From Rhizaria sp. SCN 62-66 (lineage: Eukaryota), in assembly GCA_001724265.1 (NCBI GenBank), contig MEDY01000202.1:1-53761 (forward strand): a stretch of 53,761 nt of DNA, in the 5' to 3' direction. The position numbers and the translations under genes were made by a program. Below the pieces are notes generated by a model that saw only the letters and a list, made by a program, of their open reading frames with translations, did not search any database and had not been told where the DNA came from. Positions 1 to 53,761 of this stretch are shown here, piece after piece (position 1 is the first letter of the stretch; the number at the start of each line of letters is the position of its first letter).

Positions 1-973
1 CGTCGTCGATGACGCGGCGTGCGCGACGGGCCTTCTCCGCGTCGGCCTTGACCTTAGCTTTGGCCCTGGCAAACATGTCGTCGTCGTCGTCCTCGCTGTC
101 ACTGTCGCTGTCAACGACGCCCATTGCAGCGCGGCTGTCGATGCGTTTGTTGACGCGCTTGCTGTCCTCCCTGTCGCCGCCCTTCTTCGCACTGGAGCCG
201 CTGGCGTTGCCGTTGTCCTCGGCGTCAAGCTCGCCGGTGCCCTGGAGGAAGATCTCCATGTCGGCCGCGTCGAGCCGCGTGACGAGGAAGCCCGTCTCGT
301 TGTCTACGGCCATGCGCGCCGCGGCCGCGGCCTCGGCCTCGGTGTCGCCGGCGGCCGCGGCCAGGATCGACGAGCGTTTCGAGTAGCTCCAGTCCGTCTC
401 CTCGGTCTCCGTTGTGGCCGTGCCGGCGGCGCCTTTCTTGGGCTTAGCGTACGCGGCCAGTGACCGGTTGTCCACCCGCGCGGCGGCGATATCCGGCGAG
501 GCCAGCAGCTGCTTCAGCACGTCGGGGTCCAGCGCCTCGACGTAGTAGCGCCGGTTCTTCAGCACGAGCTTCACCTTGCCGCAGCGCTCCGTGTAGCGCG
601 TAATAAAGCGCACAACCTAAGGGTCGACATCGGTTTTGGAAAGCTTGCGCAGGCCCTGGAGGATGTCCTCGGTGTCGAGCCCCAGCGAGGCGGCGGCATA
701 GAGCGAGTACTGCGTGATGACGTACTCGTGCACGTACTGCGGCCGCGTCACAGGGTCAGAGATCGCGATCATAAAGTCGCACGCCTGCTTGTACACCGGC
801 GACCATGACTCGAGGAACACGTGCCGGTTGGGACATACCCAGAGCGGGCGCCGCTCGTGGCTCGGGCGTAGCGGGAGACGGCCGAAGTTGGACTTGAACA
901 GCGCGTCCATCGCGGCCGTGCGCGCCGCGGCGTCTGTCACCACCGCGGAAGGGTCAAGCGCGTCTTCGGACAT
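1..973 (-). CDS. ERCC3: TFIIH helicase XPB (ERCC3/RAD25/SSL2), N-terminal part; runs off the window start; in-frame TAG at 617-619
   Basis: ATG at 973. Translation ...[107 protein letters not shown] matches the XPB N-terminal domain on both sides of the TAG. The frame stays open to position 1. Confidence 0.95.
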
Positions 974-4403: not shown

Positions 4404-5432
4404 ATGTCACACGCGGCCGGCCCCGACACCGAGGTGGAGTTCCGTCTCAAAAACATTCAGACTTGGGACTACCAGAAGTCTGAGTTCCGCATCGGCAGCG
4501 TCCACGGCCGCGTCGATTACGAGCAGAAAGAGGTTCGTCCATCTCCTTTGCATCCCCGCTTCACTTGCTTGTCCACACATTGATCTTACCCATTGCTCAC
4601 ATAACCTTGCGATATCTAAATGTTCTACCTTTTATCTCGTGCAACCCATAGCGCGCGTTCCACCCGAGCGACGTCCCGCCCGCCGCGCGCGCGGCGAAAG
4701 AGGCCGTCCGCAAGCGCGCCCTCGACTCGGCGTTGCACGCATCCGCGCCCGAGTGGCGCGCCGAGACCAAGGCCGGGCTCTCAGTCGGCTTCCGCGCCGG
4801 CGCACCCTGGGAGACGCCCGAGCAGACGGCGCTGCACCGCGCGGCGGCCGCGCGCGACGCCGCGGGCCGCGTGGCGGACCGCGAGGCCGCCGCCGCGGCC
4901 GCTGCCGCGGCCGCGCGCGCCACGCAAGCCCACGCGCGCGCTGTCCGCGCCACGGACACGCAGGGCGCGTCGCTGCGCCCCGCCGCGCAGCAGCGCGTGC
5001 TGGCGGACCCCGCGCAGCGCGCCGCCGTCGCCGCGGCCGCGCGCGGGGCCCGCAGCAGCGACTGGAACGGCAGCACGACAGTCGACCGGCGCGTGACGGC
5101 GCTGCAGAACGTGTTCCTGACCGAGGGCCCCGCCGCCGCGGCCGCGACCACCACGCAGGCGCGCCTCGATGCCGCACCCGCCGCCGCGGCTGCCGCGCGC
5201 ACGCAGGGCCACGCGTTCCTGGGCCCCTCGGCGCCGCGCGGCGTGCTTGACGGGACGCTCAACCCGCTGCCCTTCGTGCGCCCGCCGGTCAGTGGGCTCT
5301 GCGCCACTGCCGCCGCGATGCCCGGCGCGGGGGGCGTCGCGGCTGACGCGGGCGAGTTTGCGGCGGGCTCGACGCTGTCGCTGGTGGCGCGGCAGACGCT
5401 CGTGCTGGAGCAGCAGCGCGAGCAGCGCCGCG

Positions 5433-5464
<32 letters not shown>

Positions 5465-6568
5465 GCGGAGAAGTTCGCCCGGGCGGCCGCGGCGGACCCG
5501 CGCGCGTTGCTGCCGCGGCCCTACGGCGGGCGCAGCCGCGAGGAGGAGGCCGCGCGCAGGCAGGAGGGCGCGCGCGCGCTGTCCGAGACGTACACTCGCG
5601 AGGCCGCCGAGGCCGCGGTCCGCCGCCAGTTCGGGGACAGTTACCCCGAGACGACTGACGGCGGCGATCGCGCGAGCGCGGGTGCGAGCGTTGGCGGCGA
5701 CGGGGGCAACTGGTTCAAGCTGACGCTGCGCAGCCCGCAGCCCGCGCCGCGCGTGGCTTCCTCGTCCACCGCCGTGGCGCTCTCGCCCAGCGGCAGCGGC
5801 AACGCCCACAGCAACGGCGCTAGCAGCGGCAGCGGCGGTGCGGCCCCGTGGGGCGGCGCGCGCGGCTTCAACGCGGCCTCTGCGTCGACGCTGGGCTCCT
5901 CGGCCTTCGTCCCCACGACGGCCGACCGTTCCCCGCGCATCGCCCCCACAGTTCTGCCCGCCGCCTCGACCGCCTCCACTGCGGCCCAGGGCGGCGCGGC
6001 CGGTGCGGAGTCGGCGCTGGCGGCATACCTGGCCCCGCAGCTGGCTCCCGCGCGGCTGCACGCGCTGGGCGTGCCGCTGGGCCATACGGCAGCCGCCGCG
6101 GCCGCCGCGGACACCGCCGCCGCGCCCCTTGCGGCCCCCGGCCACCCCGCTGCCCACGGCCACGACCACGGCCACGGCGTAGTGGGGTTGTCGCGTGGCG
6201 CGCAGGAGCAGGTGCAGCGGCGACTGGTGCGGGGGCTGGACCAGGCCCTCCGCTCCGATGAGGCCGAGGGCCGCCGCGGCGGGCGCAGGGCCATCGAGCG
6301 CGCGCGCGCACAGGGCTTTGACACCGCGGCGAACGGCGGGCACGGGCGGCGCGGCCGGCGCGGCGGGCAGCGGCCGATGCAGCAGGGACAGGAGCCGCTG
6401 TACTGGCAGCTGGACACGCGCACGGTGGACGCGTTCCACGGCGACCGCGACGGCGACAGCGACGACGACGACGGATACGAGGGCGACGGCGGCGCGGGGC
6501 TGAGCGCGAACAGGCGGAGAGTGACGCAGGAGCAGGAGCAGGAGCAGGGACAGGACGGTTCTTAGTGA
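4404..6568 (+). CDS. Hypothetical Ala/Gly-rich protein; 2 exons; ends TAG-TGA
   Basis: Exon 1 4404-4532 (MSHAAGPDTEVEFRLKNIQTWDYQKSEF...), GTTCGT..TAG intron 4533-4651, exon 2 4652-6568 in frame with the 610-aa ORF. GC-rich codon usage. No family recognised. Confidence 0.75.
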
Positions 6569-14881: not shown

Positions 14882-17800
14882 TTAACTGAGCAGCTGCATC
14901 GGCGTGACGGTGTGGTCGTCGGCCGCAAGCGAGGCCGCGAAGAAGCCCTGCGCGGCCGAGTTCTGGCCGCGGTACGCCTCCTCCTCGGCGGCGACGCGCA
15001 TGCGCAGCCGCAGCGGGCGCGCCGACGGGAAGTCCGGCCCCATGAAGCAGATGTCGCACGAGGGGCAGCAGCGGCGGGGACACATAGCGTAGTTGCCCAG
15101 CGCGATGGGCCCGACGATGAGGAGCGAGAGCATAGCCATGAAGAGCGGGATCACGGCGACGACGAGCGAGGGCGCCCACAGCGTCGTGTCGGGGTGCAGC
15201 GCCTTGTTAGTCCACAGCGCAAGGAAGATGATCTGGTACGGAATCAGCAGCATGGTGAAGCACGCGAGCGTGGAGGAGCCGCAGTCATCAGAGCACTTGC
15301 AGCAGGCGACGCAGTAGCCGATGACGACGACGAGCGCGGTGAGGAAGAAGGGCGCGAAGAGGCCCATGGTGGGGATGTCGAATCCGCTGAGCTGGAGGTG
15401 CAGCAGGATGCAGAAGAGGTAGACCTGGATCATGAAGAACATCGATCCACCCGCGGGGCCGCGCATCGGCTCCTCTGCGCGCGGCGCGTCGTAGTCGGTC
15501 ACGGTGTGCAGCCGGTGCTCCAGGTTCGCGTTGTCCTCGTAGATGGCGTAGGTGCACATGGCGAACACGTGCAGCAGCGCGATTACGTAGATGGGGATGA
15601 AGAACCACCACAGACTGAGGCCGACGCCACAGGACTTGATGAAGATGAACGTCGCGAGGAAAATGAGGCTGAGCGGGATGCCGACGAGCACCACGCGCGA
15701 CTGAGACGGCTGGCGCGCGATGAGGTTCCACGTGCGGTCGAAGAGCGTGTCGCCGTCGATGGAACACAGGCGAGACGGGTCGCGGAACGGCGCCAGCGAC
15801 GGGTCTCGCGCCTGCGCGCCAGGCTCGGACGGGCACCAGCTTCGCCGCATGCACGACGCGACGAAGGAGATCACCACCCAGAGCACGATGACGGCAAGCG
15901 GGAAGGTAAAGGCGGGCGTCACGCGGAGCCCCTCGTGGCCGGCGATGATGATAAGCACGAGGAACGTGAGAACCATGAAGACGATCGACACGAGCGCGCC
16001 GAACGACACGCAGCACACGTACCACACGTTGGCCGTCGTGCTCTTGGCGTCGAAGCGCTCGACCCACGCCGCGCCCGTGGCCTGCGCGAGGGCGAGCCCG
16101 CCCGCGCGGGCCGTGCGCGCGGCCTCGAAGTGCTTGTGCAGCGTCATAACAGACTCGCCCGCCACCCAGCGCTCGAAGTCGTCCGCCACCACCGTGCTCG
16201 TCGCAGTGGCCGCGATGGCGGGCGCGGGAGCATGCGCAGAGGCCGTCGCAACTGCCGCGGTGTCGCCGGCGTTGGCGGCGCCGGCATTGGTGGCGCAGAG
16301 GTCGCTGGCGGGGCGCGTCTGGCGGCCCAGGAAGCGGTGGTAGCCGCTCAGCGCGTCGCGCGAGAACCGCGCATAGGCCTCCTCAGCGATGCTCGTCTCC
16401 ATCGCCGGCTCGGCGACGGTCGACGGCATGTACTGCGGGCGCAAGAACGCGCGGTTGGCCGTGCTGTTGGGCGCCAGCGTGGCGTCCGGGTCGGCGACCT
16501 CCTCGGCGGGGTCGAACAGATGCACCTGGCGCACCGCGGTGCTGCTGCTGCCGCCGTCCTCGTCCTCACCGGCGCCCTCGCCGGCGCCAAACGCGAGCGC
16601 GGGGGCGCCGGGGACGGGAGGTCCGCCGGGCGGCGGCGGAATGCTCGACGTGTGGATGCCCGACGTGGGCGGCCCGCCGGGCGGCGGGGGAATGCTCGAG
16701 GTCGGGCGGTGCGCCTCGGGGCCGTTGCCCAGCACGTGCCCGTGGCCGAGGCCGCTGGGTGCGCCGGGCGGGGGCGGGATGGAGCTGGTGGGCAGACTGC
16801 CGCCGCCGCCGGGGTTGCTGTGCGCGAGCAGCCGCGGCACCTCGGTGCTGTGCAGCACGATCTCCGGCAGCACGTCGTCCACCTCAAAGTCGCCGCACGC
16901 GCCCGCACCGGCGCTCGCGCTCGCGTTCGCGGGGGCGCCGGTGCCGCTGACGCTCACGGTGACGCTGCTGACGCTGTTGCCGTAGATGCCGCTGGAGCTG
17001 CCGTCCTCAGCGTCGGCGTCCTCGCTGATCACGTTCAGCTTGAACCCACTGCTGTTCACCACCGTCTTGCTCCTGTGCGCAGCGCCGACACTGACGGCGG
17101 CACTGGCACTGGCACCAGCACTGGCGCCGACACCGGTCTCGGAGCGGAGCGAGACTGCGGCGACAACGCCGCGCACGGGGTAGTCGGCTCCGGGCACAGG
17201 CACCGCCGCGGCGGGTAGCTTGCGCAGCTCGGCGAGCGTCGCCGCGCCCATCTTGCCGCTGCCACCCGCGGCGTGCACGGCGGCGCTGTAGGCCGCGGCG
17301 GCCGCGGAGAGGCGCTCCTGCGCCTCGCGCTCGTTGGCGTCGAGCCGCGGCCGCGCGCTGTCGCCGCCCAGCAGCGCTACCACGGCGGGTACCGACACGC
17401 CCAGGCCGCCCGGCGTGCTCTCGTCGCCGTCGCCGCCCAGACGGTGGCCCTTGCCACTATTACTGCCGGCGCCGGTGACGGCAATGCTGGGGCTGATGAG
17501 CGAGAGCGGTGTGGCCATGGCGCGCGTCACGCTGGGTCCTACGAAGAGCTCGAGCCGGCGCGCGCCCACCGTCGCCGCGCCCGCGCCCGCGGCGCCCGCG
17601 CCGAGCCCGGAGGCCGCGTGGGGCGGGGCGAGCGCGGTGGTGTCGGTCGTCAGGGCGATTTCGTCGAAGCGGCCCAGAGAGGGCCTGGTATGGAAAGGCA
17701 AAAAAATATCAAATCGAAGTGATGCGAATTAGCAAAAAATACAATACGCAATTGATGAATTACAGACGAACTCGATGAAAAAAGTATTAGCATTGACATT

Positions 17801-20689
17801 TGAGAGCAGATTCCGGTTAAAATAAGTATCCATTCGCCGCACGTACCAGTTCTGGTAGCGCTGCGCCGCGCCGAGCGGGTCCTCCGGGGGCAACGTGGCG
17901 TAGAGCGGCGGCGCGTCAAGCACGCCGTTGCCGCGCGCGGTCCACGTCGAGTTGGCGAACGGCGTCTCGCCTCCGAGCGGCGAGCTCGCCGGCAGCGGGC
18001 CGCGGCGGAAGGACTGCGCGGCGTTGACGCTGTGACCGACGCGGTCGCTCGCGGTTGCCTCGTACTGCAGCTGCCACAGCGCCGTGCGCACCGACTGGGC
18101 GAGCGCCGCCGTGGTGCTCTCGTTTTCGGCCTCGCTGCTCTCGCCGTCATCGCCGTCGCTTCCGGCGCCATTGCTGTTTCCCGCGGAGTTGTCGCGGTTG
18201 CGGGCGGCAATGATGCGGGACATGTCAATGCCCAAGCGCGCGCCCGCGGTGATCAGACGCTGGTCGCGCTCGCGCCGAGCCTGCTCGGCAGCGCTGTTGC
18301 CGTTGATGTTGCTGTTGTTATTGTTGCGCCGATTGAGGCTGCGGCCACGGCGACTCCGGCTGCGGTTGCTGCTGCTGCCGTTGTTGCCGCTGTTGCTCCT
18401 CGCGGCGTTGGCCTCGCCGCTGTCGACGAGCGTGCTCGCCACGGGGGGCTCCGGCGCGGGTCGTGTGGGAACGGCGCGCACGGCCGCGTGAAGCTCCACT
18501 GTCGCCGCCACCACCGGGTCCGACCCGTTGACGATCACGGCACCAGAGCCCGCGCCGCCGCCGCCGCCGGCACCCGCGCCCGCCCTCGCGCCCGCGGTGG
18601 CGCCGTCAGGTACGGCGACCTTGATGAGCTTCTTCTTGAGCCCCGCGGCGGGGCTGCCGCCGGAGACCGTGGCCGCGGTCGCAGCGGCCTCGGCCTTGAC
18701 GCGCTAATCTCTCGCGTCGAGCGCGGCGTTGCGCACCTGGACCTGCTCCACCAGCGCCGTGAGCTCGCGCTCGCGCGCGGGCCCGCGGCGCTGGTTCTGG
18801 AACGCCACCATGCCCTCCTCGACCGTGAGGCCGTAGCAGTAGCCCACGGGCGGATGGACGGCTTCGCGGCGCGCGCGCTCAGCGGGGGAGATAACGCCGT
18901 CCAGCTCGGGCAGCGGGTCCGGCCCCGAAAGCAGCGAGTAGCGGTCCGTGTGGCGGCGCAGGTCGCTGCGCAGGTCGCGCGAGTAGGGCCCGCCAGGCGT
19001 CACGCGAGTCCACAGCCACACCAGCTCATCCGCCGTGAACAGCGACGTCGGCACTGCGGGCGCCTGCGGCCGCACATCGCCCGCGCTGCTAGCGCTCGTG
19101 CTGCTGTTGTTGTTGGGATCGTAGAAGTCGACGGGGCCGGCCGCGGTCAGAATGGCGATCTCCTGCTCAGTCATGCGCGCGAAGCGGACGAGCGATAGCA
19201 GCGGGCCCAGCTCGAGCCGCACGAGGCGCGGGTCCTGGTCGTCGAGCCCGTGCGCGCGCAGGCGAAAGCGCGCCCAGCGCACGAGACTCTGCAGCAGCTC
19301 GAACTCGTCGCAGCGGAGCCGGTCCGAGGCAACGAGCGCCTGCAGCGCGCGCGCGGGCAGCGCGAGGAACAGCGGCGAGCGCACGGCCTCGGGGAACACG
19401 GCGGCGGCGTACGCGAAGTCGCCGGACTCGGGGTCGTAGGCAAGCGTGCTGTCCTCCTCGAAGTAGCGCGCGGTGCCGCGCTCGCCGATCGCGGAGTCTG
19501 TGTCGTACAACGACAGGAACTCGGGCTCCTGGTTCGCGCCCGCGGCGTTGTTGCTGTTGCGCACGGCCCCGGCGCCACCGCCCTTGCCCTGCAGCCGCGC
19601 GCGCTCGTCCAGGTGGCCCAGCACGAAGGGCAGGAAGGCCGTGTCGGGGTGCCGCGCTGTGGCGGCGAGACTGTCGCCGATGCCGAAGGTCTCGTAGCAC
19701 TCGGGTGCGTTGCGCGAGACGCCCAGCGCGTGGAACACCGTCTGCACCACCGACGCGACGGGGCGCTCGCTGCGGCGCGCCAGGGTCAGCGCCGTGTGGT
19801 TGCCCGCGCCGCAGCCGCACGTGTGGCGGCACGACAGCATCCAGGCGGAGCAGCCGGCGCCGCGCGTGCGCGGGCCGTGCAGGTCGCTGCGGTAGCGCTC
19901 CACGGCCGCCGCGGACGGGAATGCCGGCGGCGCGCGCGGAGACAGAGACGGGGACACGGTCGCCGCGGTGGGCGCGCGCGGCGCCGGGGCGAGCTCGACG
20001 AGCAGCGCGGAGGGCGCCGGCACTGTGGGCAGCGGACGACCCGCGGCGTCGGTGAGCTTCTTGTAGCTCGACACGGTGGGCGCGGACGCGGGGGCCGGCG
20101 CGTGGCGCGGCGGCGCGCGGCCCGTCGCAGCGTGGTAGCGGCGCGCGACGGTGGAGTAGACGGGGAAACCGGTGCCGGGCGCGAGCCCGGAGCTGGCGCT
20201 GGTGCAGGAGCTGCCTGGTCGCGTGAGGCAGTTGTCGTAGAGGAAGTGGAGGAACGCGTTGTCCTCTTCGTCATGCAGCAGCTGGACAACGCCCGCGGCG
20301 GGGGCGGAGGCTGAGGCCGCGGAGTGCGCGGGCAGGTACGTCTCGGTGCCGGGGACGGATGGCCCGAAGGCCATTGCGAGCGAGAAGGGCGCGAGGTTGG
20401 TCGGCCAGTCGCGGGCAATCAGCGTGGGGTCGTCGCGGTTCAGCGGGAACGGCGCGGCCGAAGCGCCACCGGGCGGAGACTTCGGCGAGGACAAAGACGC
20501 AACGTACTTGTATGCCGAGGACGATGCGTCATGACTGGAGGCGCTGGGAAGGCTCGAGGAGGCGTGGCCGGCAGCGGAACTGTCTCCTGGGGCCAAGGGG
20601 GCGAGATGCGACTCATTGATCTCGGGGGCGACGTCACCTGACTCGGCCAGGCGGAGGTAGTCTGCCCAATCAGAGATATACTCCTCCAT
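14882..20689 (-). CDS. ~1881-aa protein with a BACK-like domain and a C-terminal multi-TM region (TMEM185/Fragile-X-F-like); 2 exons; in-frame TAG at 18704-18706
   Basis: Exon 1 20689-17847 reads through TAG (DARD*RVKAE). GTACGT..CAG intron 17846-17685. Exon 2 17684-14882. BACK-like segment SPLFLALPARALQALVASDRLRCDEFELLQSLVRWA..LLSLVRFARM. TM segments include SLWWFFIPIYVI and LFAPFFLT. Ends TAA. Confidence 0.75.
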
Positions 20690-21266
20690 GTGCTCGGGCG
20701 CGCAGTGGCGGCGGACGGAGGAGCGCGGGAGGCTGAAAAAAACCGTGAAAAAGAAGGCGTGCGACAGCGCGTGAGGGGGTTCGAATCTTGTTGCGAAGAG
20801 AGAGCAATATTCACCCTAAAGATCAGACTGTGACAAAATACAGCAATTAAAAAGCAATAAAACAGACAACATAATTAGCTGTTCAATGCGCTGTTGTGAG
20901 AACTAATGACGGTGCGAGGCTCTGCACTGATTCCTATTCCGCTCCTAGTTCCGGCTCGGACACGCCCGCCAGTCTGGAGCTGGACAAATTTACTTTCTGT
21001 GGCCGCGACCACAACTGGGTTTGCGCGGACTATTTTTAGGCACCATCAAGTCATATGTGCACCATTGCAGAATTTGCGGCTTCTATAAGATATAAAAAGC
21101 TCCTATGTATCTATTTGACGTGACAGTGCGTCTTGAGGCCCTTACTATAGCGTCTATAACTCAATCAATTCTTCCTCAATACTGTCAAGTAAGCAAGCTC
21201 GCACGTATTTCGCCCACAGTCGTCCTCCTGCGTCCCCACGAGCTCAACTCACAGCCGCCGTCGCGC

Positions 21267-31637: not shown

Positions 31638-34600
31638 ATGTCGCAGCCCCGCCAGCAACCTGGCGGGGGGCCCGGCGCTCCTTCAACCTCCTAGCGCCCT
31701 TCAATTTACCGACGTCACAATGCGACAGGTGTTTCCCAATTAGGCACGAACACAACGCCTCCACCAGCCACCCAGGGCTTGTCTTCACTTCCGGCTTCTG
31801 CGTCGCTGCCCGTCAATAGCTTCACGCAGTCGGCCACACTGCCAACAACAAGCCTCTCGCAGCGCGCCAACTCGTGTTCTCCACCACCGTGGCCCGGCAG
31901 CGCCACCGGCGCTCCAGCGTCATCGCAAAATCCCCGCGTACCTGGCGGATTGCCGTCCGCGCCTGGATCCGGCGGTCTCGGCATGTACACGCAGCGGCAA
32001 GCGCCGGCGTACTCGTTCGTTCAGGCGACATCATCGTCCTCCTCGGCTACTCCCGCCACAGGTTCCACCGTCCCTGCCGGGTCTATCGCGCAGCCGCGGC
32101 CTATGACGAGCCTTTACGCCCGCTCTGGCGCCCGCACGGTGTTTGCAGCTGGCCCTACGACCACTTCTGGTGGCGCAACCAGCGCGAACTCTCGCTCCAA
32201 CAACTCAACTCCTGCAAACACAGCAAGCTCTAGTCAGCATCCCCAACCACCGCCGCAACCACCGCAACAGCAGCCGCAACACCACGTGCAGTTCTTGGGC
32301 GTGGCCCCGACGCAGCACGCCGCGGCCTCACAGCACACGCAGCACACCGTGTTCGCGACCCAGTTCGGCGGCAGCATCGGCCCCGCCAGCGAGCTCAGCC
32401 TCAGCCACAGCCTCAGCCACGGCCTCAGCCACGGCGGCGGCAGCCGCAGCGGCGGGGGCGACGGCCCCGGCTCGGGCCGCAACCGCGATAGCCTGAGTCC
32501 CACGCAGCACACGGGCGCGGGCGGGGGAGACCCGGGGACGCAGTACTCCGGCACTGCGGATAGTCGTATCAACACCAGCAACAGCAACAACGACAGCAAC
32601 AACAACAGCAATGGCAACAGTAATTCCAGCAATGCGATGCCGACCCCGCTGTCGCGCGCGCAGTCGCAGTGGCAGCCGCACCTGCACCCGCTCTCGCACT
32701 CACACGAGCAGTCGCAGTCGCTTTCCCTGCCGCAGCCCTACACGCAGTACCAGCAGCCGCAGCACCACGACTCGCAATCGCAGGCGCCGTCATAGACGCA
32801 GGCACAGGCGCAGCAGCAGCAGACGCATTTGACGGACAATGCAGCACCAGCGACCACGACTCCGGTTTTGACTGATGGTGCTCCAGCTGCTGTTGGCGCT
32901 GCTTCTGGCCCCCATGCCACCCCAACAGGCACCACGAGCACGTCAGCACACTCTGCTGCGGTTCCTGTCGCTTCTGCTGCTGCGTCCGCTGCTACTGTTG
33001 CCGATGTGAATGCCCGCGCAGCAAGTGCTCCGGCTGCTGCGTCTGGCGGCGGCGCGCGCGGAATGCTGCTGCCGGTGCCTCCGTCCGCGCTCGACCTCGG
33101 CATCGACAGTCGCGGCGGCGCGTACGGCAACTCTAACACCGGCAACACTGCTGCGCAGCCATTTGGCGCACAAGGGTATAGGCCACAGAATACATTGACT
33201 GCAGGCTCAGCAGCAACAGGACGCCCCGTGGCCAGCGCCAGCGCCGGCGCCGGCGCTGGCGCTAGCGCTGGTGCTGCATCCGTGTACAGGGGCGGCGCCA
33301 GTGTGTACGCACGCGGGGGTGGCAACTTCCACAACCCTGTGTCAGCGAAGCCAAACGCCATCAACGCCACTGCGTACAACAGCAATGGTTACAATGCGAT
33401 TCGCCCAAACAACGGTTCATACAACAACCTCAGCGCACAGAGGCTCAACAATAACACGCAACAGCAGCAACAGCAGCGCCCGGCGCTACAAGCGCCCGCG
33501 CCGACTGCCTCTGCAGCAGTAGTCTCAGGAGCCACAACGTCCGCAGGCGCAGCCAAAAACCCTTCTCTTCTATCAGCATCGCCGTCGTCAGTGGAGGCCC
33601 TCAAGGCCGCTCACGCCGCCGAGCTGGCCGCAGCGGCCGAGAAGCTGGCCAAGCAGAGCGCGCGCCAGCTCGAGGTCTCCCGCGCGTCGGCGAAGCTGCG
33701 GCAGGAAATCACCGCGATGCGCAACGCCGCCGCGGCCGCCGCGGGCCGCGAGAGCCAGCTCCAGCTCGACCTGGCGGACCGCGCGAGCGTGGCCGCGGCG
33801 GCGCGGCGTGAGGCCGAGGCCGCGCGCGAGGCGCAGCGCAGCGCCGCGGCTGCGGCTGCGGCTGCGCAGGCGGCGGCCGAGGCGGCCGTACGCGAGCGCG
33901 AGGGGGCGGCGGCCGCGGCACGCGCTGTGCTGGCACGCGTGGGGCGGTGGCAGGCGGCCGAGGTGGCGCTGGCGGGGTTCACCAGCGCGGTGCGCGAAAT
34001 GATGGTGGGCGTCGAAACACTGGGAAGTCTGTCCACGACCGCGAGTGCGAATCTGGCGACCGCCACAGAGGGGGCGGCTCCGCGGGCACGAGCTCGGTCA
34101 CGGGCCCGCTCCCGGTCGCAGTCGCCGTTACCGTCAGTGTCACGGTCGGGACTGCGCTCACGATCACGGACTGAAAACGGTACTGGTGACAAGGATGATG
34201 ACGATGAAGATGCAATCACGCAGATGGTCACTGGTAACGATGAGCATGATTGCGTCAACGATGTCGAAGACGACAAAGTGGATGGCGACGACGCTGGCAG
34301 CGCTGACGCGGAGCCCGACGCGGATGCCGTGACAGCGGAAGCTGAGGCTGAGGCTGATGCGGTTGCAGGCGCGCGCGAACAGTGGATCGGCTTTATTTCA
34401 GATTTTTCAGTAAGGCTACAGTTGGACATTGGCGCAAAACCGAAACTGGGCGGCGAGAGTAGCGACCAAAGCAGTGGCCGTGCAGTTGACGACGCGGAGG
34501 CCGGCAGCAACGACTATAGACACAGCGGCGACAACGACACTTCTGTTCACGATGCTGAGCTTGCCGCTGCAATTACAAAGCTTAGCGCATTTGCCACTAA

Positions 34601-37600
34601 ATGCACCTCCGCTGCAGCAGCTGTATCGGCGCGAGGTAGTGTCATTGACGGTAACGCCGTTAGCCACGCTGCTCACGACGATGACCAGGGCGTTAATGCT
34701 GATGCATTAATTAATGCCCGCAACCAAATGGTTGTATATCTAAGCGGACATTTCATGACGACTATTGGTGCTGTGGCGGCAGCGCTTCAAGTTCCATGCG
34801 CCCAAGCGAGCGCTGCCACAGAGGCTGACGCTGATGCTAGCGACGATGGCGATCACGGTAATGCAAGCGCAAGTGCAAGTGTGAGTGCTGATATCGGTAA
34901 TTATCAAGAAAACAGTTTTGACACAGAGTCGAAGCAACATTCAGATGCGACTGCTGCCTCTCCTGCTGTTGACAGCAGCAACTCCAGCGCAGCGTGCCCC
35001 GGCATAGCCCCGGACAACGTCGCCGTAAACGCCTTGAGCAACAGCCTGAGCAGCGACGACTCCGACATGCGTCTGGCGTCGAACCAGTCGACGCTGGTGG
35101 CGCCGCCGACGCCGGGGCCCGCCGCGGGGACGCGCGCCCACCGCGCCGCGCCGCTGACGTCACAACCGCAGGTGCATTCGAGCACGCTGTCGCAGCAGTC
35201 GCAGTCAAATTCATTGTCGCAGCTGCAGGGCAAGTCTGGCCTCGGCCACGGCCACGGCCAGGCACACACGCGGCCGCCGTCGACGCCCGCCACGCGACTG
35301 CCGCGCGGCGCGGGGGCGCGGGCGGCTGGCGGCTCGCCCCTGCAGGGGCTTGGCTTCGGCAGCCTCGGTCTCGGTCTCGGGCTCGGCTCCGGAATGCAGC
35401 ACTCTGCGCACAGTCACCTGCTCGGGCCGGGGTCCGCGTCCGCTGCGGCAGCGACAACGAAGGCAGCGGTCTTGACTGTGCGCGTGATGCTCCGGGCCGT
35501 GGTGCGCAACAGGGCGACGGAGATCCAACACCAGCACCAACAACAGAAGCAACAACAACGTGTGTCTGGACCCAGCGACAGCGCCAGGGCAGACTCACCG
35601 TCTCAATCTCAATCTTCCGAAGTCGACGCACTGTCGGAGCCGCAGCCGCAGTGGTTGCCACCATTGCTGGAGCCGCCCTCAGAGCAGTCGCCCTTGAAGT
35701 CGCCGCAGGAACTATAGCCCCATCTGCAGCAGTCGTCCTCATCGTCATCCTCAGCTTCTGTGTTCCAGTCGCCCCTGCCGCCTCCGCCGCGCTCGCACTT
35801 GCGCTCGCACGCACAGTCGCGGACCGCATCGCAGTCGGCGCACCTACACCCGCAGTCGCGCTCAAAGCCACACTCACCACAGTCGCAACCTCCGTCGGAG
35901 GCGACTGAGACGCTGCAGGCATTGTGCACGTTCCTCGACAGCCTGTTGCCGCCCGCTGCACACGGTCACTTGCACGGGCTCTCTGCAGGCTCGTTGCTGG
36001 CGTCGCCCCGCGCCAGTGTCCGCGGGTACACTCACACCAGCCTTCACGGCCATAATCACAGTCAGCAGTCGCAGAGTAACTCACAGCTCCTCTCCGGCAC
36101 TGCCAAGAAAGACACACCCGCACTCGTTTCGATGACTCCCCCCACTGGCGAAGAGGCCGCAGGAGCGCCAGAGACAGCGGCGGTGGCCGACTTGGCGGCC
36201 GCTGCGGGTGAGGCTTTCGCCGCCTCGCTCGCCCGCGCGCGCACTGTGCTGCTCGCCGTGGCGCGCGCCGCGCGGCTGCCGCAGGAGGAGCTCGCCGCGA
36301 TGGAGAGCGAGAGCAAGAGCCAGGACGCGACTCTCGTCGCTGCCGCTGCTGCCGCTGCCGCAGCTGCTGCCACAACGGAGGCGCTGAGAGACGGTGAGGC
36401 CGGTTTGGCGCACGTGAAGCAGCTGCGGATGGACGACTGTTCCGACTCAGACAATTTCGAAGACAATAGCAATGCCAAGCGCAAGACTTTGCAGACAAGA
36501 AGCACCAATGGCAACGATGGTGACGACAATGACGATGCCAGCGATGGTGAGACCTTTGCCCTGGACGACCGCGGCTTCTACAAACTTAAACGTGCACGCA
36601 CACGCCTTTCAATATCCACTGCATCGTCGACAGCCTTCGTGTTGGCTTCCCCCGGTGCCACCGCACTGCAACAGAACATATTGCAACCGCTGCGGCGACG
36701 TCCGGCGTCGCTGCGTGCGTCGTTCGCTGCACTCGCTGACCCGTCCTTACTCTGCACCGCAACTTCACAGACACAGTGGCCTTGGCAGTCACAGTCGGCT
36801 CTCTGGTTGCCGTCGCCTCTACGCTCTGTTTCGGCGGTTTCCACCGCGTTCGGCGCTTTTCACAGCACGCCCGCGAGCGACTCGAACGTCGCCTTTAGCT
36901 CTGCTGGTGGCGTCTTTCCTTCTGCGATGTGGGCGTCGGTGCCCCCCGCGGCCGCTTTATGCGCGTTCCTAGCTTTCACCGCGCCGTCCAGCTACGCACC
37001 GCTTGCGCACACGCTGCGCGTCGTCGCCGCCACAGCCGCCGCCGCTGTTGCGACATCTATTTCGGCCGCGGGCACCAATGCGGGTGCTGCAGCGGTGGCG
37101 GCTGCGGCGGCCACCGAGGCAGGTTTCCTCGAGCTATCGATCGACAGTAATCACAACTTGAGCCACAACAGCAATTCCAACAACGGACCAGGGCCCAGCA
37201 ACAATGCTTCGTCGACGGTAATGACGCAGGCGCGGGCGCTGGCGCGCGAGCCTATGGCCGTGTGCAGTCTGGCTCGGGCTGCTGCTGATGCGGGACTCGC
37301 CGCCGCGTTGCCTGCGTCGCTACACACCCACGTGGCGAAGCTTCTGTGGGGCGGTAACTTTAACAATGGCAGTCACAGTAGAGAATGCGGGTTTGACTGT
37401 GGCGGCGCCAGCGTTGGTGCTATTTTATGCCAGCTATACGCCCTTGCAAACCTTGGTGTCGATGGTGACAACACCAATATCTCACCCGCGAGCACACTGT
37501 CTACTGATCGTGCCGTTGCCTTTCTCTCCCGCGGACTTGCGCCTCATTCACCAGCAACCACTCGCACTCACAGCAAGCGGCAGCAGCGGCTGCAGCAAGA

Positions 37601-40600
37601 ACGCGATGCCGTTGCGGCCGCACTCACTGCCGCATCCGCGCCGACCGCAGCGGGCGCGCGCGCGCTGGCTGCCCTTGTTGAGGCTTCGCTCGCGGCTGCT
37701 CTTGCTCCCGCTGCTGCTGCAATTGTACCTGCGGCAACTAGTACAACTTATAGCGCAAGCTCAAACAACTCTGGTGCGCCGCGGTGTGACGCTGCGTGCA
37801 TTGCGTGCAATGCGGAGTACATTCCGTCTCCAGTCTCAGCATTGGCGCAGGTTCTGGCTCTAGCGTTAGTTCGCGTGGCTGCGCTAGGATGCCAATTTTC
37901 ATCCTCCGGTGCGATTGCAGCTGCTGCAGCGGTTGATACGCAGCCCAATTCCTCCGGTGCGAGCGCGAACGGTCAGAGCCCCCGCAATGATGCGGGTGGG
38001 AATGCACTTGAGGCTATCGCACGCGCGCGCGCTCTCGCGCTCTCTACACTGCGGCTGCTGCTGCTGTTGCTGTCGGTTGACCCCGCGCTCCGAGCCGGGC
38101 TGCGCGCCCAGGCGACGGCACACGAAGCCCGACGAGAGCTGAGCAACAACACCGATTGCAGCAGAGACACGACTGCGGATGCTGATGGTGGTCCTGCAAC
38201 TCTCAACGGTGAGCGCATGTCTAGCGCTAGCCCTGATGTCCGTGCTGACTTTGTTGCCCCAACTCTCGTCAGCGCAGTTCTGTCTCTGTGGCAGGCCGCG
38301 GCAGACGACTACCCCGTTGCGGCGTTGTGCGCTGCTGTGCTTACTGTTGCTCTCCACTGGCAGTGCGCTCCGGCCTCGGTCACAGCGGCCACTGCAGCCG
38401 CCTTCACCGACATCAGCGGCAGCAGTGGTAGCAACGGTAACGACGGGGCTGTGATGTCATTGTCGCAGGACGAGCGATATATCGTCAACTGTGCTCTAAC
38501 GCGCTCACGCACACTGCCGACCCTGCAGGCGCAATCTCAACACGCACAGCTTGCTATTGTTGCCAGTGAAGTTGTTGCTGCAGATGAGACCGCGGCCGCG
38601 TGTGCGCGTGCAGTGGTTGGCTGCACCCGCGCTCTGCACCCACTGCTTGTCACGACAACGCCATCCGACACGGGATACATCACCGGTGATGTTTGCGGCG
38701 CAACAGAGCAATATTCTCAGTCATGGTCGTTACTCAGCGAACTTGCCAGCGGAACAAATGCGTTCTCACCACCTCACAGCAAGGAGCACCACAGTAATTC
38801 TTCTAATCGTGGGAGTTCAGGTGTTAACTGTCCCCTGCTGCTGTCATCACCCGTCGGTCTGCCCGCGCCTCCGCTGCTGTTGCGCCACGGCGTCCTGCAC
38901 AGCACATACCACCCGGAGGCCCTGCTCGCGGTCACTGCGCTTGCATCGGCTCTCACGCTCACTCCGCCCGCGCCTCAACTCGCGGTCACGGCGACAACTC
39001 AGAGAGGAGTTTCTGCAGGTACTTTGCATGCACTGGCTGTTTCTGGAGCAAATGTCCACACTCCTTCGATCAAGGCCGCCGCCGCAGACTCTGCGATCGC
39101 AGCTGCCACCGAGTCTCCAGCCGCGCGGTACTTGTTCTCGCTGCTGCGCCCGCTGCCGCTGCCGGCGCTGGCCCCGCTGCTGCCGCTGGCGCCGGTCACA
39201 ACTGCTGCCGTGCCCGGCGCCGTGTCTGCCGTGCCCGCGCAGACATCGGCCGGGCTCTCGGTGCTGCCGCTGCCGGCGCAGGCGCACACGCTGCCGCTGT
39301 GGGCACTACCGCGGTTGCGCGCGCTCCTGAGGCTTATCCCATCCCTGCTTACCGCCGCGCGCACTTCAGGCGCGCGCACAAATCCTAACGCGGATGATAT
39401 CACCGTGTCGGCGGACGCCGAAGCTGGGTTGATTGCTCTCGCCCGTCTGTGTCAGTTGCTGCTGCGGGAGCTGCGCGCCCTCGCCCCCGCGCCTGCGCCT
39501 ACTGCCCTCGCGGTTGGTTTGCTCACCGGCGTGTTCGACTGCCCGTCGCAGTCCCAGTCGCAGCCGCTTGCCACCGAACCCGCTGCTGCTAACGCTGCTG
39601 CCGAGGTTGCCATCTCCGCCGCTCTCTCTACCGCTGGCGCCACGCCTGCTGCTCCAGCTCATGTCGCGCTCGCGGCCGCCTTTACAGTCGCAGCCCGCGC
39701 TGGAGCCAACGCGCGCCGACTTGCCGCTGTCTTGGGCTCTGCGCGCGCTGCTCTGGCCCTTGCCGCTGCGCCCGCGCTCACAGTCGCCGCACAGGCTGCC
39801 GCGCACGCCGGGACGCGGTTTGCCGCAGGGATTGCGCACGGGCTGCTGGCGCTGAAGGCGGCTGCGTTTGCGCTGCCTGCTGCGGCGGCGCGAGCTCACG
39901 AGGCGCGGGTTGAGGCTGAGGCCACAGGGGCGCCGTGTGACCGTGCTGAAAACGAGCCCGATAGCGAGAGCGAGAGCGGCAACTCAAAAAATGACAACAA
40001 CAGCGGTGACGAAGTTGGTGACCAGCGCGGTCGTAGTCGCAGTCGGGGCGATAATACGCGTAGCCACCGCGACCGCGCCATCGTGTACGACTTTGACGAT
40101 GACGGCGGCAGCAGCTCAACAAACACAAGCCGCTGGCGCTCGCTGCCGGACCGGTCTGCACACTTGTACTCTGCACAACTGCAGCTTGCCGCGGCGTCGT
40201 CTGCCTCGGCGGCAGCGCTTACACGGCAGCATCAGGCTGCTGCGGCCGCCGCATCTGCCGCGGGCGCGCCGCCGCCGCCGCGACCTGTGTTTTCGCTTGA
40301 TGTGCTGCTGCGGCCAACACAGCAACATGCTCTTGGCGCGGCCAACACGACCGCTGGCGCGGATCGCAATAGCGATGGGAGTCGTCTCGCCAGCGAGACC
40401 GGTGGCGCGATGAGCAACCGGCCGGCGCGAGGGAACGGCCCTCGTTATCTCAGCACATGCGTTTTTGACTCTGTACTCGCACTGGCGAAGGCCCCAGGAC
40501 CTGACGCGGCAGTGCTTGTTGCTGTAGTCTCAGCGCTGAGGCTTGCTGCGACACTCGCGCCCATGCGGACTGCGCGGTCGCTCTCGCAATTGCAACCGGT

Positions 40601-41840
40601 GAGTGCGACTAATGCGGGTCTTGGTGGCGCCGGGGCAGGTTTTGTGTGGCGGTCCGCTCTGGTCACACCGGACACTGTTGCTTCTGCCGCCACCGCAGTC
40701 GCTGGTGCAGGTTCTGCAAACTCACTCACATCAGTACTCTCGGTGCCAATGAGCGCGTTTCCGAGTGATACAGCTGCCGCGGTAGCTGTGGCGACTACAT
40801 TGCCTTTAGACCCACCTCAGCCAGCTCCCCTATCGCAGCAGCAGCAGCAGCAGAAACAACAATATTCGCGTTCTCGCAGCAGCGGCCCGTCATCCGCTTC
40901 TCGACCCCAATCAGCTCCGTTGTACTGGCCCTGCGCGCTCCCGCGGCGCTCCGCCGCAGTTGCCGCCGCTGCGGCGTAGCTGGTCATGGGTGCGCTCGAG
41001 CGGTTTGGCGCCGCCGCAGCGCTGATGTTTGCGTTTCCGTCGCCGCCGCTGGGGCCGCACGCACAATGCGTCTTTGCGACCGGCGCCACGGCGGAGGCAA
41101 ACACCTCGCCGAACATTGTTGGCGGAGACGACACCGCAGTTGCTGAACGAACGTCGACACGGACAGCAGCTGATGCGAACGCGTGTCGCACCCCCATTGC
41201 TGTTGTCTCAACTGGCGCGATCTCGCTCTTCCCGCATCTGTGGCTCCCCCCGCTGTCGCTGCTCCGGCCCCGCGGCGCGCCCCCCGTTGCCCGAGACCTG
41301 TAGCCGCGGCTGCGGGTGCGCAACCTGCCTGCTGAGCTCAGGAAGCTCGCCACGGCGGCGGCGCGCACGAAGGCTAAGACTGCCACAGCGTCAAAAACGA
41401 CGGGCAATGTGACATCCACTGCGTCTGGTTCTAACACGACAGCAGCAGTTGTTTTGGTTTATGCTGACGGTTCCATTCACGATGCGAGCTGTGGAGGCGT
41501 TCACAACACCATCGAGCCAGATTCTGAGTCTGAAACGGTGGCAGTGGCTTTAGGGACTGTCGCAGCAGTCTACGGGCGCCTGACAGCGCTGGCAGTAACT
41601 TCGAAGGTTCAAGTTGCGCAGGCGTGCCAGCTAGCATCGAATCATTGCAATACTGCGCATATACAACCATTTGAGTCCCTTTCTGCAGTTGAACTTGAGG
41701 GCGCAGTTGCTGTTGCAGCGCGCGCGTCGCCGCTGTACTGGGCAGCGCTTGGTGACTCTGGGGCTACAGCAATCTCAAGAGCCGAGGCAGCGCGTGCAGC
41801 CAAGGCAATTCAAACTCTTATTGAACTGCCATCTCTTTGA
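31638..41840 (+). CDS. ~3400-aa hypothetical protein (disordered N-terminus, coiled coil, Ala/Leu-rich helical C-terminal half) with five in-frame TAG codons
   Basis: ORF-track pieces ending at 31694, 32795, 35717, 40979, 41303 and 41840 are all in one frame. The first five end in TAG, the gaps between them contain no other stop, and the last ends in TGA. No AT-rich intron-like interruption is visible. Confidence 0.8.
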
Positions 41841-50098: not shown

Positions 50099-53000
50099 AT
50101 GTCCTTCTCATTATCCCATGCTATGGACGAGATTATCGCTGGTCCGTTACGCGCACCCGTTGCAGACGTATATACCGAGCCGGATCACACGGTGATTGAC
50201 TCGTCATCGTTTGCATCCTCATCTGTGGCGCTCCCAGTTCCCCCGCGCGCACCACTCCCAGGCGAGACTGGTTGTTGGCCCTCGGACCTCGCCCACTCCA
50301 CGCCCCTGCTCTTCACGACTGCGGCCCCAGCGCAGCCCGCTACTCTGTACAGCATTCCGGGCCTTGCGCCATCATCGGAGAACGAGGTTGACGCGAACAG
50401 ACGTACCGATGCGGCCGAGGTGTGCATGCGCCTGGCGTTCCCCAGCGCGGCCACTCACCCAAGGCTCAACGCAGTCCGCGTCCTCTCGCCGCCCGACGCC
50501 GACGACGCCGGCGCTGACGGTGACTGCGGTCGCGCCCGTGCACGCGCGACGGTGACGCCCGCAGTGGGGCTAGAGCTATTAGAAAACCCGGCGTACGTCA
50601 GAAGCTATGCTTACGAGACGTTGTACCGGTGGACGGAGCAGGCCGCGGCTGCTGCGAGTGCTATCAGCGTCAACAACAACAACACCGCGAACACTGACCG
50701 CTTGGGTGCTGCAGCTGGCAGTGACTTGTCAAGCACCATTGGCACTCGTGCTTGCATTGAGACTCTTAGCGACGGCGCGCTTGCAGGCATCTTCATCAGT
50801 AGCATCAGTTACACCCTGAGCACTGCTTGCAAGAGCTCCGAGACCGTCGTGCTGCCCTCGTTCGAGTCGATCTCCGTGCCAGTGCCGAGTCGCCTGGCGC
50901 CGGTGCCGTTTTGCGCCGCCCGGTTGCCCGCGGAGGGGGTCGCTCTCTCGCTCTTCCTGCGCTCTCTGCAAAGCAACAGCAACAACAACAGCAACAGTGA
51001 TGTTACCAGTAGCAACGAAAGCGCTGATTCTGACACCGGCTCTCTTGCAAAGCGGGTCTTGGCGCGCGTTTTGCCAAGCTCTCTATACAGTTTATTTGCG
51101 AAGAATATTGCGCTGCAGTCACTGCATCCCGACACAGTGCTCTTGGACTACATATCCCCTTCCCGCCAACTTGCTAAGGCTTCTAAATTGAGTTCGAGGA
51201 CTAATGATGGGCCTGTCATCTCGTCTACGACTGAGCTTGATGCGCCTCAGTGCTACCCGCCTGACGCACTTACAACCCCTGTGGTTGCATTTGCTCAAGG
51301 GCCTTCGCAAATGCATGAACTGCAGCAGGTGGGCTGCAGTCCAGCTAGCACGGGGCCTGTCTTCATGCCGCTGCCGCCGCCGCCGCCGCTGGCACCTGCC
51401 GACTCCAGTGTTGGCACGGACTCTAGTTCTGGCTCTGGCTTTGTTGCGTTCCTGCTCTCGCCTTTCCGCTTCTTCCGCTCGCGGCCCGGCCCAGCGCCGG
51501 AAGTTGGGTCGCCTCTTCCCACTGCCAACGCGCCTCACAGTTTCGCGACAGTCAAGCTCTCGGAACACAACGTGGTCCATCACGCCGCGGTGGCCGCCGC
51601 CGCGGGCGCGCCGCTGCCGCTGTCGGTACGCGCAGTGCGCGAGATGGGGCGCATCGGGCGGCGCCAAGCGGCCCGCCGCAGCTACAACAACAACCGCGCG
51701 CAGGTGGGGGTCTACATTCAGCGCCCCGACCTGAAGCTTGACTGCAATGGCGTGGAGCTGCACAGCGACAACGCGTGCGACAAGTACGACGACTATCTGT
51801 ACCACCCGCAGCAAAGAACATCCAAAGGGACTGCTTTCTTTGTGGATGAGTCTAACCCTTTAAGGAATTCGGGGTTATTGTGTCTAAAGCCAACGTCTGT
51901 AGAGTCTTGCGCGAAGGGAGACGTTGTACTTTCTGCTTTGGTGGCCTCTCTTGGCCCAGAATTTGCGACGTTGGCGGCCACCGGCACTACTTTAGCTGAT
52001 GTTCGAGCAGCTGGTGCCGCCTGTCACCATGATTTTAATGCTAAAGCAGCGACTGCGCATGTGACTGCTCCGGTTTCTGCTGATGTTGCGCCTGTCAAAG
52101 GCAGTCCGGCGAACGCCGTGTTGAGCCCGCATCCATCCGCGCTCGTCTTTGCCGCCGACGCGGCGCGGGCCGTGCTGGCGTGTCTGCGCGCGCCGCGCCC
52201 GTTCCCCGTCCTCGTTCCCACCGCCCAGCGGCTTGACCCCGCGGTGCAACGCGAGGCGGTGCCCTGGCACGGGTACGACCACGACACGCCGTCGCTTTTG
52301 GCCAGCAGCAACGCCGGCGCAGGCAACACGGGCGCGAACGCCGCCACAGTCGCCGCAACCGCTTCCACCAACGGGCACCACAACGGCACCGCGACGCAGC
52401 AGCTGCTGTCGCGGTTCAACGCTGTGCACAACAACAACGTGAACTTTGCCGACGCCGCCGCGGCCGACGGCAACGGCGCGAGCTACAGCTACACGGAGAC
52501 CTACTGCAATGCCGTTCAGGGCGAGGTAGAGGACAGCGACGCCCTTACAGCGGCGCTGCAGAACAGCCACTCGTTCGCGCTCGCGTGCTTCGGGACCTCG
52601 ATGGCACAGCCGCTGTTCCTGGCGCTGCCGCGCGCCGCGCTGAAGCGCTTCCTGCGCTCCAGCGAGCTCAACTGCGGGAGCGAGTTCGCCCTGTTCCAGG
52701 CCGTGGTGCGCTGGGGCCGCTTCCGCCTGCGCGCGTACGGTCTCGACGACACGGACCCCGCGCTGGTGCGGCTGGAGCTGCACGACCTGCTGCCGTTGAT
52801 CCGGTTCAGCGTGCTCACGGTCACCGAGATGGCCACGGTCACGCGCGGCGCGCCGCTGGACGAGGACTTCGAGCGGACGCTGCTGTACAAGTGCGCACGG
52901 GAAGCTAAACCATGCGAGGAGGAAAATGACTCACTCTCTGCAGCAGAATTGTATCTGCCCGCATTTGCTTGTAGCAAAAACGTCGGCGCCTCTGCGAGCT

Positions 53001-53683
53001 GTCGGGCAGCGCAAGAGCACGAGCGAGAGCAAAAACAAGGACATGAGAAGGATCAAGACCTGTCCCACTGCCTGTTCACACAGAGCGAGATCGACTCGCT
53101 GCGCAAGCTGGTTGGCGCGAGCAGCACCGCCGGCGCCGCAGGCGGCGACTGGAGCGGCGAGCTGAGCCGGGAGACGGCGTTTGCGGCGCTGATGGCGGCG
53201 CAGGAACCCGTGTTGCGCAGCCGCAAGGCGCCGAAGCGCAAGATGGTGCGCACAGGCAACGGCCGCCGCCGCAGCCGCCGCAGCCGCACCGGGAACAACA
53301 ATGGGAACGGTCACGGCGACAATAACAACGGAAACGACGACAGCGATGATAATAATAATGGCGATGACGGCGATGCGATGATCGACCGTGGTCCGCACAT
53401 TGAGGGCGACACGGCGAGCCCATTTGTGCCTGATTACTCGCGGGACCTCAACCCCAACCCCGACGACGACTTGGAGCGGCGGTATCATGCGCCAGTGTTT
53501 GGCCTCGATGACGCAACTCAGGGACAGGGACGCAATCGCAACCGGAACAATGACGTCCGTAACCGTATGCGCAACGCAGACAATCTCAACCGCAACAACA
53601 TTAATAACAACAACAATAACAACAATGCCCGCAATCGTCTTTTGAATCGGAGCAACCGCAATGTCAACCGCAATGTCAACCGT

Positions 53684-53760
<77 letters not shown>

Positions 53761-53761
53761 C
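50099..53761 (+). CDS. Large BACK-like domain protein, paralog of 14882-20689; runs off the window end
   Basis: The frame from ATG 50099 (or 50123) appears open to the window end, which would explain its absence from the ORF track. It contains QPLFLALPRAALKRFLRSSELNCGSEFALFQAVVRWGRFRLRAYGLDDTDPALVRLELHDLLPLIRFSVL and an Asn/Arg-rich tail. Confidence 0.82.
53684..53761 (+). repeat. (AAC)26+ microsatellite, in-frame poly-Asn
   Basis: Pure AAC repeat reaching the window end, in the frame of the 50099 CDS. Confidence 0.95.

Follow-up and report, generated by a model that had tools for sequence, protein, structure and literature searches.

Results

Gene content of the window

The stretch of DNA analysed here, hereafter called the window, is 53,761 nucleotides long and is eukaryotic. 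Its coding regions are GC-rich, with a GC3 of about 0.8-0.9, and the genes recognised by Pfam encode a WD40 protein, a G-alpha subunit, an importin, the PP2A A subunit, a FAM98/DUF2465 protein, ankyrin proteins and two BACK-domain proteins. Two introns of the WD40 gene, judged by eye, are about 210-290 nt long, have a GC content of 0.43-0.47 and contain TAA or TGA in every frame. The best named matches of the G-alpha subunit are about 40% identical and are spread across stramenopiles, Cercozoa and dictyostelids; closer relatives are 86% and 69% identical.

A TAG codon lies within the N-terminal domain of XPB

The left end of the window is occupied by a gene for XPB, the ERCC3/Ssl2-type helicase subunit of TFIIH (2..973, minus strand), recognised from its translation, its Pfam and PDB matches and its relative P0002. 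The open reading frame (ORF) starts with the ATG at 973-971 and runs to base 2, giving 324 visible codons, and the rest of the gene lies beyond the window edge at base 1. The translation of these 324 codons contains a single stop, a TAG at codon 119 (617..619, minus strand), and the two codons directly 3' of it are GTT GTG.

This TAG falls inside PF13625, the N-terminal domain common to XPB proteins. The domain matches XPB residues 44-168 (470..844, minus strand) in a single unbroken alignment across the TAG, covering profile positions 1-122 of 125 with an E-value of 9.5e-30. In a search of the PDB, the best matches of the translation were chains of human XPB, and yeast Ssl2/Rad25 was also found; residues 31-171 align with residues 63-203 of the human protein over 141 residues without a gap (E 7e-45), with a Gly of human XPB opposite the TAG. 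The domain match and the collinearity with solved XPB structures place the gene in the XPB/ERCC3/Ssl2 family. An earlier note on this DNA had placed the TAG within a gap-free conserved block of XPB, quoting the human sequence, and had calculated that termination there would leave 118 amino acids. Both statements are borne out by the TAG at 619-617, which is codon 119 counted from the ATG at 973-971, and by the 141-residue alignment, and the human sequence returned by the PDB search is the one that the note had quoted.

An AlphaFold model of XPB residues 1-175, computed from a 40-sequence alignment with the TAG entered as Gln, has a mean pLDDT of 87.8. The TAG codon corresponds to the second residue of a modelled helix (118-129) in a block with a pLDDT of 98, and two strands of the same domain (134-139 and 142-147) come after it. 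When the model was compared with the PDB by Foldseek, the best 19 matches were all XPB/Ssl2 chains of TFIIH, with query-normalised TM-scores of 0.46-0.64. Taken together, the model and the domain layout imply that a product stopping at residue 118 would amount to half a domain, without the helicase; the SF2 helicase core itself was read from P0002 only, as the window's XPB leaves the window after codon 324.

We aligned the translation with 158 homologues, drawn from overlapping sets of 12 and 150 sequences. Every one of the 158 has a residue at the TAG column and none has a gap there, and an insertion within two positions of the column occurs in only one of the 159 alignment rows. Codon skipping or a frameshift at the TAG was rejected, since the frame is unchanged past this codon and no homologue lacks the column. 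We also rejected a split gene with re-initiation of translation, for which the next in-frame Met is residue 220, past the conserved block at residues 120-171.

Conservation on either side of the TAG codon

The closest full-length relative of the window's XPB, P0002, is a protein of 1021 amino acids that is 83% identical over the N-terminal region and that carries the helicase features PF04851, PF16203 and PF00271, with the motifs LPCGAGKT and LDEVH visible in the alignment. Its identity to the window's XPB is the same before the TAG (81/97, residues 22-118) as after it (43/52, residues 120-171). The same picture emerges from the columns in which 157 homologues are at least 90% conserved: the window's XPB retains 21 of 23 on the N-terminal side of the TAG and 8 of 9 on the C-terminal side, and in the three that it has lost the residue is conservatively replaced (D>S, L>M and S>A). 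The 205 codons past the TAG are free of stops, an outcome with a P of about 0.011 in non-coding sequence of equal composition. The earlier note had named further decay of this copy, together with another intact XPB, as something that would speak against recoding. There are no frameshifts and no other stops in these 205 codons and, with conservation equal on both sides, the sequence gives no sign of decay.

The P0002 prediction also contains an insertion of about 34 residues (MGTLHTAHSCLLFPP..., alignment columns ~1115-1150) that is found in no other homologue and that looks like an in-frame intron left unspliced by a prokaryote-style gene call.

A search among short proteins brought up a second relative, P0280, a protein of 118 amino acids with jgi and ena sources on three contigs. 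It matches the window's XPB at 115 of 118 positions, begins with the same start Met and has precisely residue 118 as its last. At the other three positions the changes (E>D, A>T and D>E) are all conservative, and they make it a distinct sequence. P0280 is known as a protein only, and short database proteins may be clipped at contig ends; the simplest explanation for its end at residue 118 would nevertheless be that a close relative carries this in-frame stop too. A shared stop of this kind argues against both a sequencing error and a recent null allele. When genome contigs were scanned with the XPB fragment, 64 pattern matches were obtained and none was confirmed.

These comparisons bear on the possibility that the TAG marks a nonsense allele or a decaying XPB pseudogene, with a further gene copy in the same genome providing the function. 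The TAG would indeed cut the protein at 118 amino acids, a change from GAG to TAG takes one substitution, TAG is, among the stops, the one most easily reached from these codons, and the intact, 83% identical XPB in the database, P0002, could in principle be a paralogue. Since the window's G-alpha gene has a relative at a similar level of identity (86%), we interpret P0002 as the orthologue in a related organism. The equal conservation before and after the TAG, the 205 downstream codons without a frameshift or another stop and the same ORF end in P0280, which differs by three conservative replacements in 118 residues, are all difficult to reconcile with a decaying gene. Two other genes of the window behave alike, one of them an ORF of 3,381 codons with four TAGs and no TAA, TGA or frameshift (see below). 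We therefore consider loss of function at this locus very improbable.

Marginally less probable still is that the TAG is altered in the RNA, by U-to-C editing to CAG or by splicing, or that it reflects a sequencing or assembly error. A GT...AG pair does bracket the XPB TAG (GTCGACCCTTAG), and it is the only such pair. It spans 12 nt, however, so that its removal would delete four residues where all 158 homologues are without a gap at the TAG column, whereas the examined introns of the WD40 gene are some 210-290 nt long, AT-rich and filled with stops; the XPB TAG lies in DNA with a GC content of 0.57-0.68, compared with 0.43-0.47 in those introns. An intron across the TAG was rejected on these grounds. 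An error is opposed by the independent and non-identical P0280, which ends at the same position. To our knowledge, nuclear U-to-C editing at six sites, the number of in-frame TAGs counted in the window, has no precedent.

Further in-frame TAG codons and the absence of TAA and TGA

A second gene with an in-frame TAG (18704..18706, minus strand) is one of the two BACK-domain genes, whose ORF extends from an ATG at about 20689 down to 17732. Its frame has neither TAA nor TGA in 990 codons, and the TAG lies within a run of high coding potential (18563-18868). The remaining four TAGs (32793-32795, 35715-35717, 40977-40979 and 41301-41303, plus strand) were counted in the frame of a giant low-complexity ORF of 3,381 codons that ends with a TGA (31695..41840, plus strand). 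Between 31695 and 41837, this frame contains four TAGs and no TAA or TGA, compared with 7-26 TAA, 6-31 TAG and 33-72 TGA in the five alternative frames of this stretch.

The giant ORF has no match to a Pfam family. It is rich in Ala, Ser and Gln, and its GC content is nearly flat across the three codon positions (0.67/0.61/0.65), in contrast to the GC3 of 0.8-0.9 elsewhere, and yet it is free of TAA and TGA. A further TAG near its 5' end (31692..31694, plus strand), where the local GC content of 0.53 is below that of the counted sites, was left out of all counts. Counted from a possible ATG at 31638 it is codon 19, which could make it a seventh in-frame TAG; alternatively, its AG may belong to an intron acceptor (CCTCCTAG).

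Over nine coding stretches with a total of 8,878 codons, there are six in-frame TAGs and not a single TAA or TGA. In a scan of the window for coding potential, which gave 32 runs, the only stops well inside a run were the TAGs at 617 and 18704; one further stop, the apparent terminator TGA of the importin gene, is two codons from the end of its run. That all six stops are TAG is weak evidence alone, because 61% of the single-base routes from the codons of these genes to a stop lead to TAG, giving a P of about 0.05 for six of six under random nonsense mutation. The stronger argument is that the ORFs remain open, and appear conserved, past their TAGs.

The usage of TAG is 0.68 per 1000 codons, corresponding to 6/331 of TAG+CAG+CAA and 6/364 of TAG+GAG+GAA, which is low for a long-established sense codon. 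The base that follows the in-frame TAGs is a C at four of the six sites, compared with a background of 0.259 at first codon positions (P = 0.04); the base at the XPB site is a G. By comparison, a C follows none of 11 listed gene-end stops.

We also considered, and set aside, programmed stop read-through in an organism with the standard code. Programmed read-through typically acts at a stop close to where a functional ORF ends, depends on a specific downstream context and yields a C-terminal extension. The XPB TAG lies mid-domain at codon 119, and the six sites, distributed over three genes, differ in their contexts. As for non-canonical amino acids, we know of no eukaryotic pyrrolysine system, and selenocysteine uses UGA.

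Gene ends and tRNA genes

Ten apparent gene terminators, called without C-terminal homology, consist of six TGA and four TAA. The sole candidate for a TAG terminator in the window is a TAG-TGA tandem (6563..6568, plus strand) at the end of the ORF 4484-6565, and it is ambiguous. The DNA past the tandem turns AT-rich and intergenic, and TAG is so rare in coding sequence that chance alone would rarely place it as the final sense codon of a gene. TAG may thus still be able to terminate translation, with the TGA acting as a back-up stop. By our own estimate, which assumes a 25% share for TAG under the standard code, finding at most one TAG among 11 gene ends has a P of about 0.2.

The main rival to a clean reassignment, and the most interesting possibility, is that UAG is ambiguous or leaky, i.e. 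that it serves as a stop in some contexts, such as gene ends, and is efficiently read through internally. The reader could be a suppressor or near-cognate tRNA that competes with a weakened eRF1, which would make this an intermediate or context-dependent code. The rarity of TAG, the C that follows four of the six in-frame TAGs and none of the 11 gene-end stops, and the TAG-TGA tandem, which would make sense were a leaky TAG at a gene end to require a second stop, all point in this direction. On the other hand, only six sites and a single tandem are involved, the XPB TAG is followed by a G and not a C, and an essential single-domain protein would require a high level of read-through at this site. 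CARYYA and CUAG are known read-through contexts, and neither occurs at any of the six sites. On balance, we regard a leaky UAG as rather improbable, although it is better placed than loss of XPB function or an altered transcript.

Neither ARAGORN nor Rfam detected a tRNA with a CUA anticodon in the 53.8-kb window. ARAGORN proposed a single doubtful tRNA-Arg(GCG) of 99 nt (35063-35161, minus strand), on the strand opposite the giant ORF and inside it, and Rfam found no tRNA in the window either at the gathering threshold or at E-values up to 1. The ARAGORN prediction is probably a false positive.

Candidate residues for UAG

At the column of the XPB alignment that faces the TAG, Glu is the most frequent residue among the 158 homologues (49), followed by Gly (23), Ser (22), Asp (13), Ala (9), Arg (8), Lys (8), Gln (7), Thr (5), Asn (5), Val (4), Pro (3), Cys (1) and Tyr (1); Leu does not occur. 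P0002 has a Glu at this position. The column is polar or small, as the earlier note had given it (G/S/E), and argues against Leu. The same note had favoured Gln over Leu. The part of this statement that concerns Leu holds, with seven Gln and no Leu among the 158 homologues, but the column fails to single out Gln, the modal residue being Glu. At the XPB column alone, Glu would fit better than Gln.

A hint at Gln is given only by the TAG at 32793. Its context (TCG CAA TCG CAG GCG CCG TCA TAG ACG CAG GCA CAG GCG CAG) puts it in the CAG phase of an (NCN-CAG) repeat, from which it could have arisen by a C>T change. The evidence from conserved columns comes from one site, that in XPB, with the other five TAGs lying in ORFs without usable homologues. 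The alignment of the two BACK-domain paralogues covers 97 residues, away from the TAG at 18704, and gave no residue there. Windows of 81 residues around all six TAGs, compared by BLAST with the six-frame translation of the window, matched only themselves. Overall, the residue encoded by UAG is most likely Glu or Gln, with Leu disfavoured.

Discussion

Our analysis suggests, with a probability of roughly 0.7, that UAG is translated in this organism while UAA and UGA remain stops, i.e. that its nuclear code has undergone a UAG-only change from stop to sense. This is the recoding, as opposed to a true truncation, that the earlier note had proposed, and four observations lead us to it: the XPB TAG lies inside a folded, conserved domain; the constraint is equal on both sides of it; P0280 ends at the same residue; and TAG, at XPB and at five further sites, is the only stop that occurs in the coding frames of the window, with no TAA or TGA. 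In-frame UAGs opposite sense codons, together with UAA and UGA that are never in frame, are what a UAG-only code would be expected to leave in a genome. In such a code, the ribosome would pass codon 119 to produce full-length XPB. A dedicated tRNA, its anticodon being CUA, would decode the UAG, and the recognition of UAG by eRF1 would be weakened; the window contains the gene for neither the tRNA nor eRF1.

UAG-only reassignment is an already known type of code variant, to which the window would add a case. One of the closest parallels in the nuclear code is the fornicate Iotanema spirale, in which UAG encodes Gln and UAA and UGA are stops (PMC5304391). As in Iotanema, UAG alone would be reassigned here with UAA and UGA kept as terminators, and Gln stands beside Glu as a leading candidate for the residue. 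The differences lie in the GC-rich genome with introns of 200-300 nt and in the great rarity of UAG (0.68 per 1000 codons). In the rhizarian exLh (Sainouroidea), UAG encodes Leu and the only terminators are UAA (56) and UGA (15); UAG occurs in frame 384 times across 71 genes, mainly where Leu is conserved (PMC5304391). The organism studied here would share with exLh the reassignment of UAG only. It differs from exLh in that UAG is rare and that none of the 158 homologues has a Leu at the XPB column.

Precedents for UAG as a Glu codon are provided by the oligohymenophorean ciliate PL0344, in which UAG encodes Glu and UAA encodes Lys, and by Blastocrithidia, in which UAR encodes Glu and UAA is also a stop, as summarised in the relevant parts of PMC11687900, PMC10553269 and PMC12153298. 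Glu is the commonest residue among the homologues at the XPB column and also the one in P0002, and Blastocrithidia offers in addition a precedent for a single codon that is both sense and stop. Both organisms reassign UAA as well, whereas TAA is found here only as an apparent terminator (four genes) and never in frame. Further independent UAG-only cases are the green alga Scotinosphaera (UAG = Ser) and, among ciliates, Protocruzia and the phyllopharyngeans (UAG = Gln or Leu), as given in the portion of PMC11687900 that lists them. Ser ranks third in frequency at the XPB column (22/158). Nothing ties the window to green algae or ciliates, the best named matches of its G-alpha subunit being drawn from several supergroups at about 40% identity. 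The literature searches listed no account of UAG-only recoding in a protist that is GC-rich, bears introns and is not a ciliate, which is not proof that such a case is unpublished.

A more tentative extension, which we think possible but a good deal less likely than the reassignment itself, is that the change is early or incomplete and that the window comes from an undescribed lineage of GC-rich, intron-bearing protists. UAG would then be avoided in coding sequence, be tolerated mainly before a C, where termination is weak, and still end at least one gene, backed by a TGA. If this were true, the organism would be a living, ambiguous intermediate of codon capture outside the ciliates and trypanosomatids.

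UAG-only nuclear codes that keep UAA as a stop are known from few lineages in the accounts that PMC5304391 and PMC11687900 devote to them. Each new case of translated UAG can inform us on how changes in release factor and tRNA separate UAG from UAA, and the very low usage of UAG could make this lineage a useful subject for work on how a reassignment begins. There is also a practical consequence. Gene calling with the standard code would reduce XPB to a stub of 118 amino acids and break the ORF of 3,381 codons into five pieces, and annotation of the lineage would therefore need a changed translation table.

One TAA of the window deserves mention in this context. The TAA at 17729-17731 (minus strand) parts two long ORFs of the same frame, 17732-20989 and 14885-17728. 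The roughly 110 nt in which it sits (~17680-17790, minus strand) are AT-rich and end in TTTCCATACCAG. This stretch looks like an intron that would join both ORFs into one gene of about 2,000 codons, and the TAA is not evidence for TAA being read as sense.

The BACK-domain gene that adjoins this TAA (17732-20689, minus strand) has a paralogue at 50099-53761 (plus strand). The two share a BACK-like segment in which 51 of 97 residues are identical (E 1e-25), and the remainder of each is unrelated and of low complexity. The second gene has no in-frame TAG in 1,221 codons. It contains a long poly-Asn run (~53600-53761, plus strand), which is unusual for the GC-rich coding background of the window.
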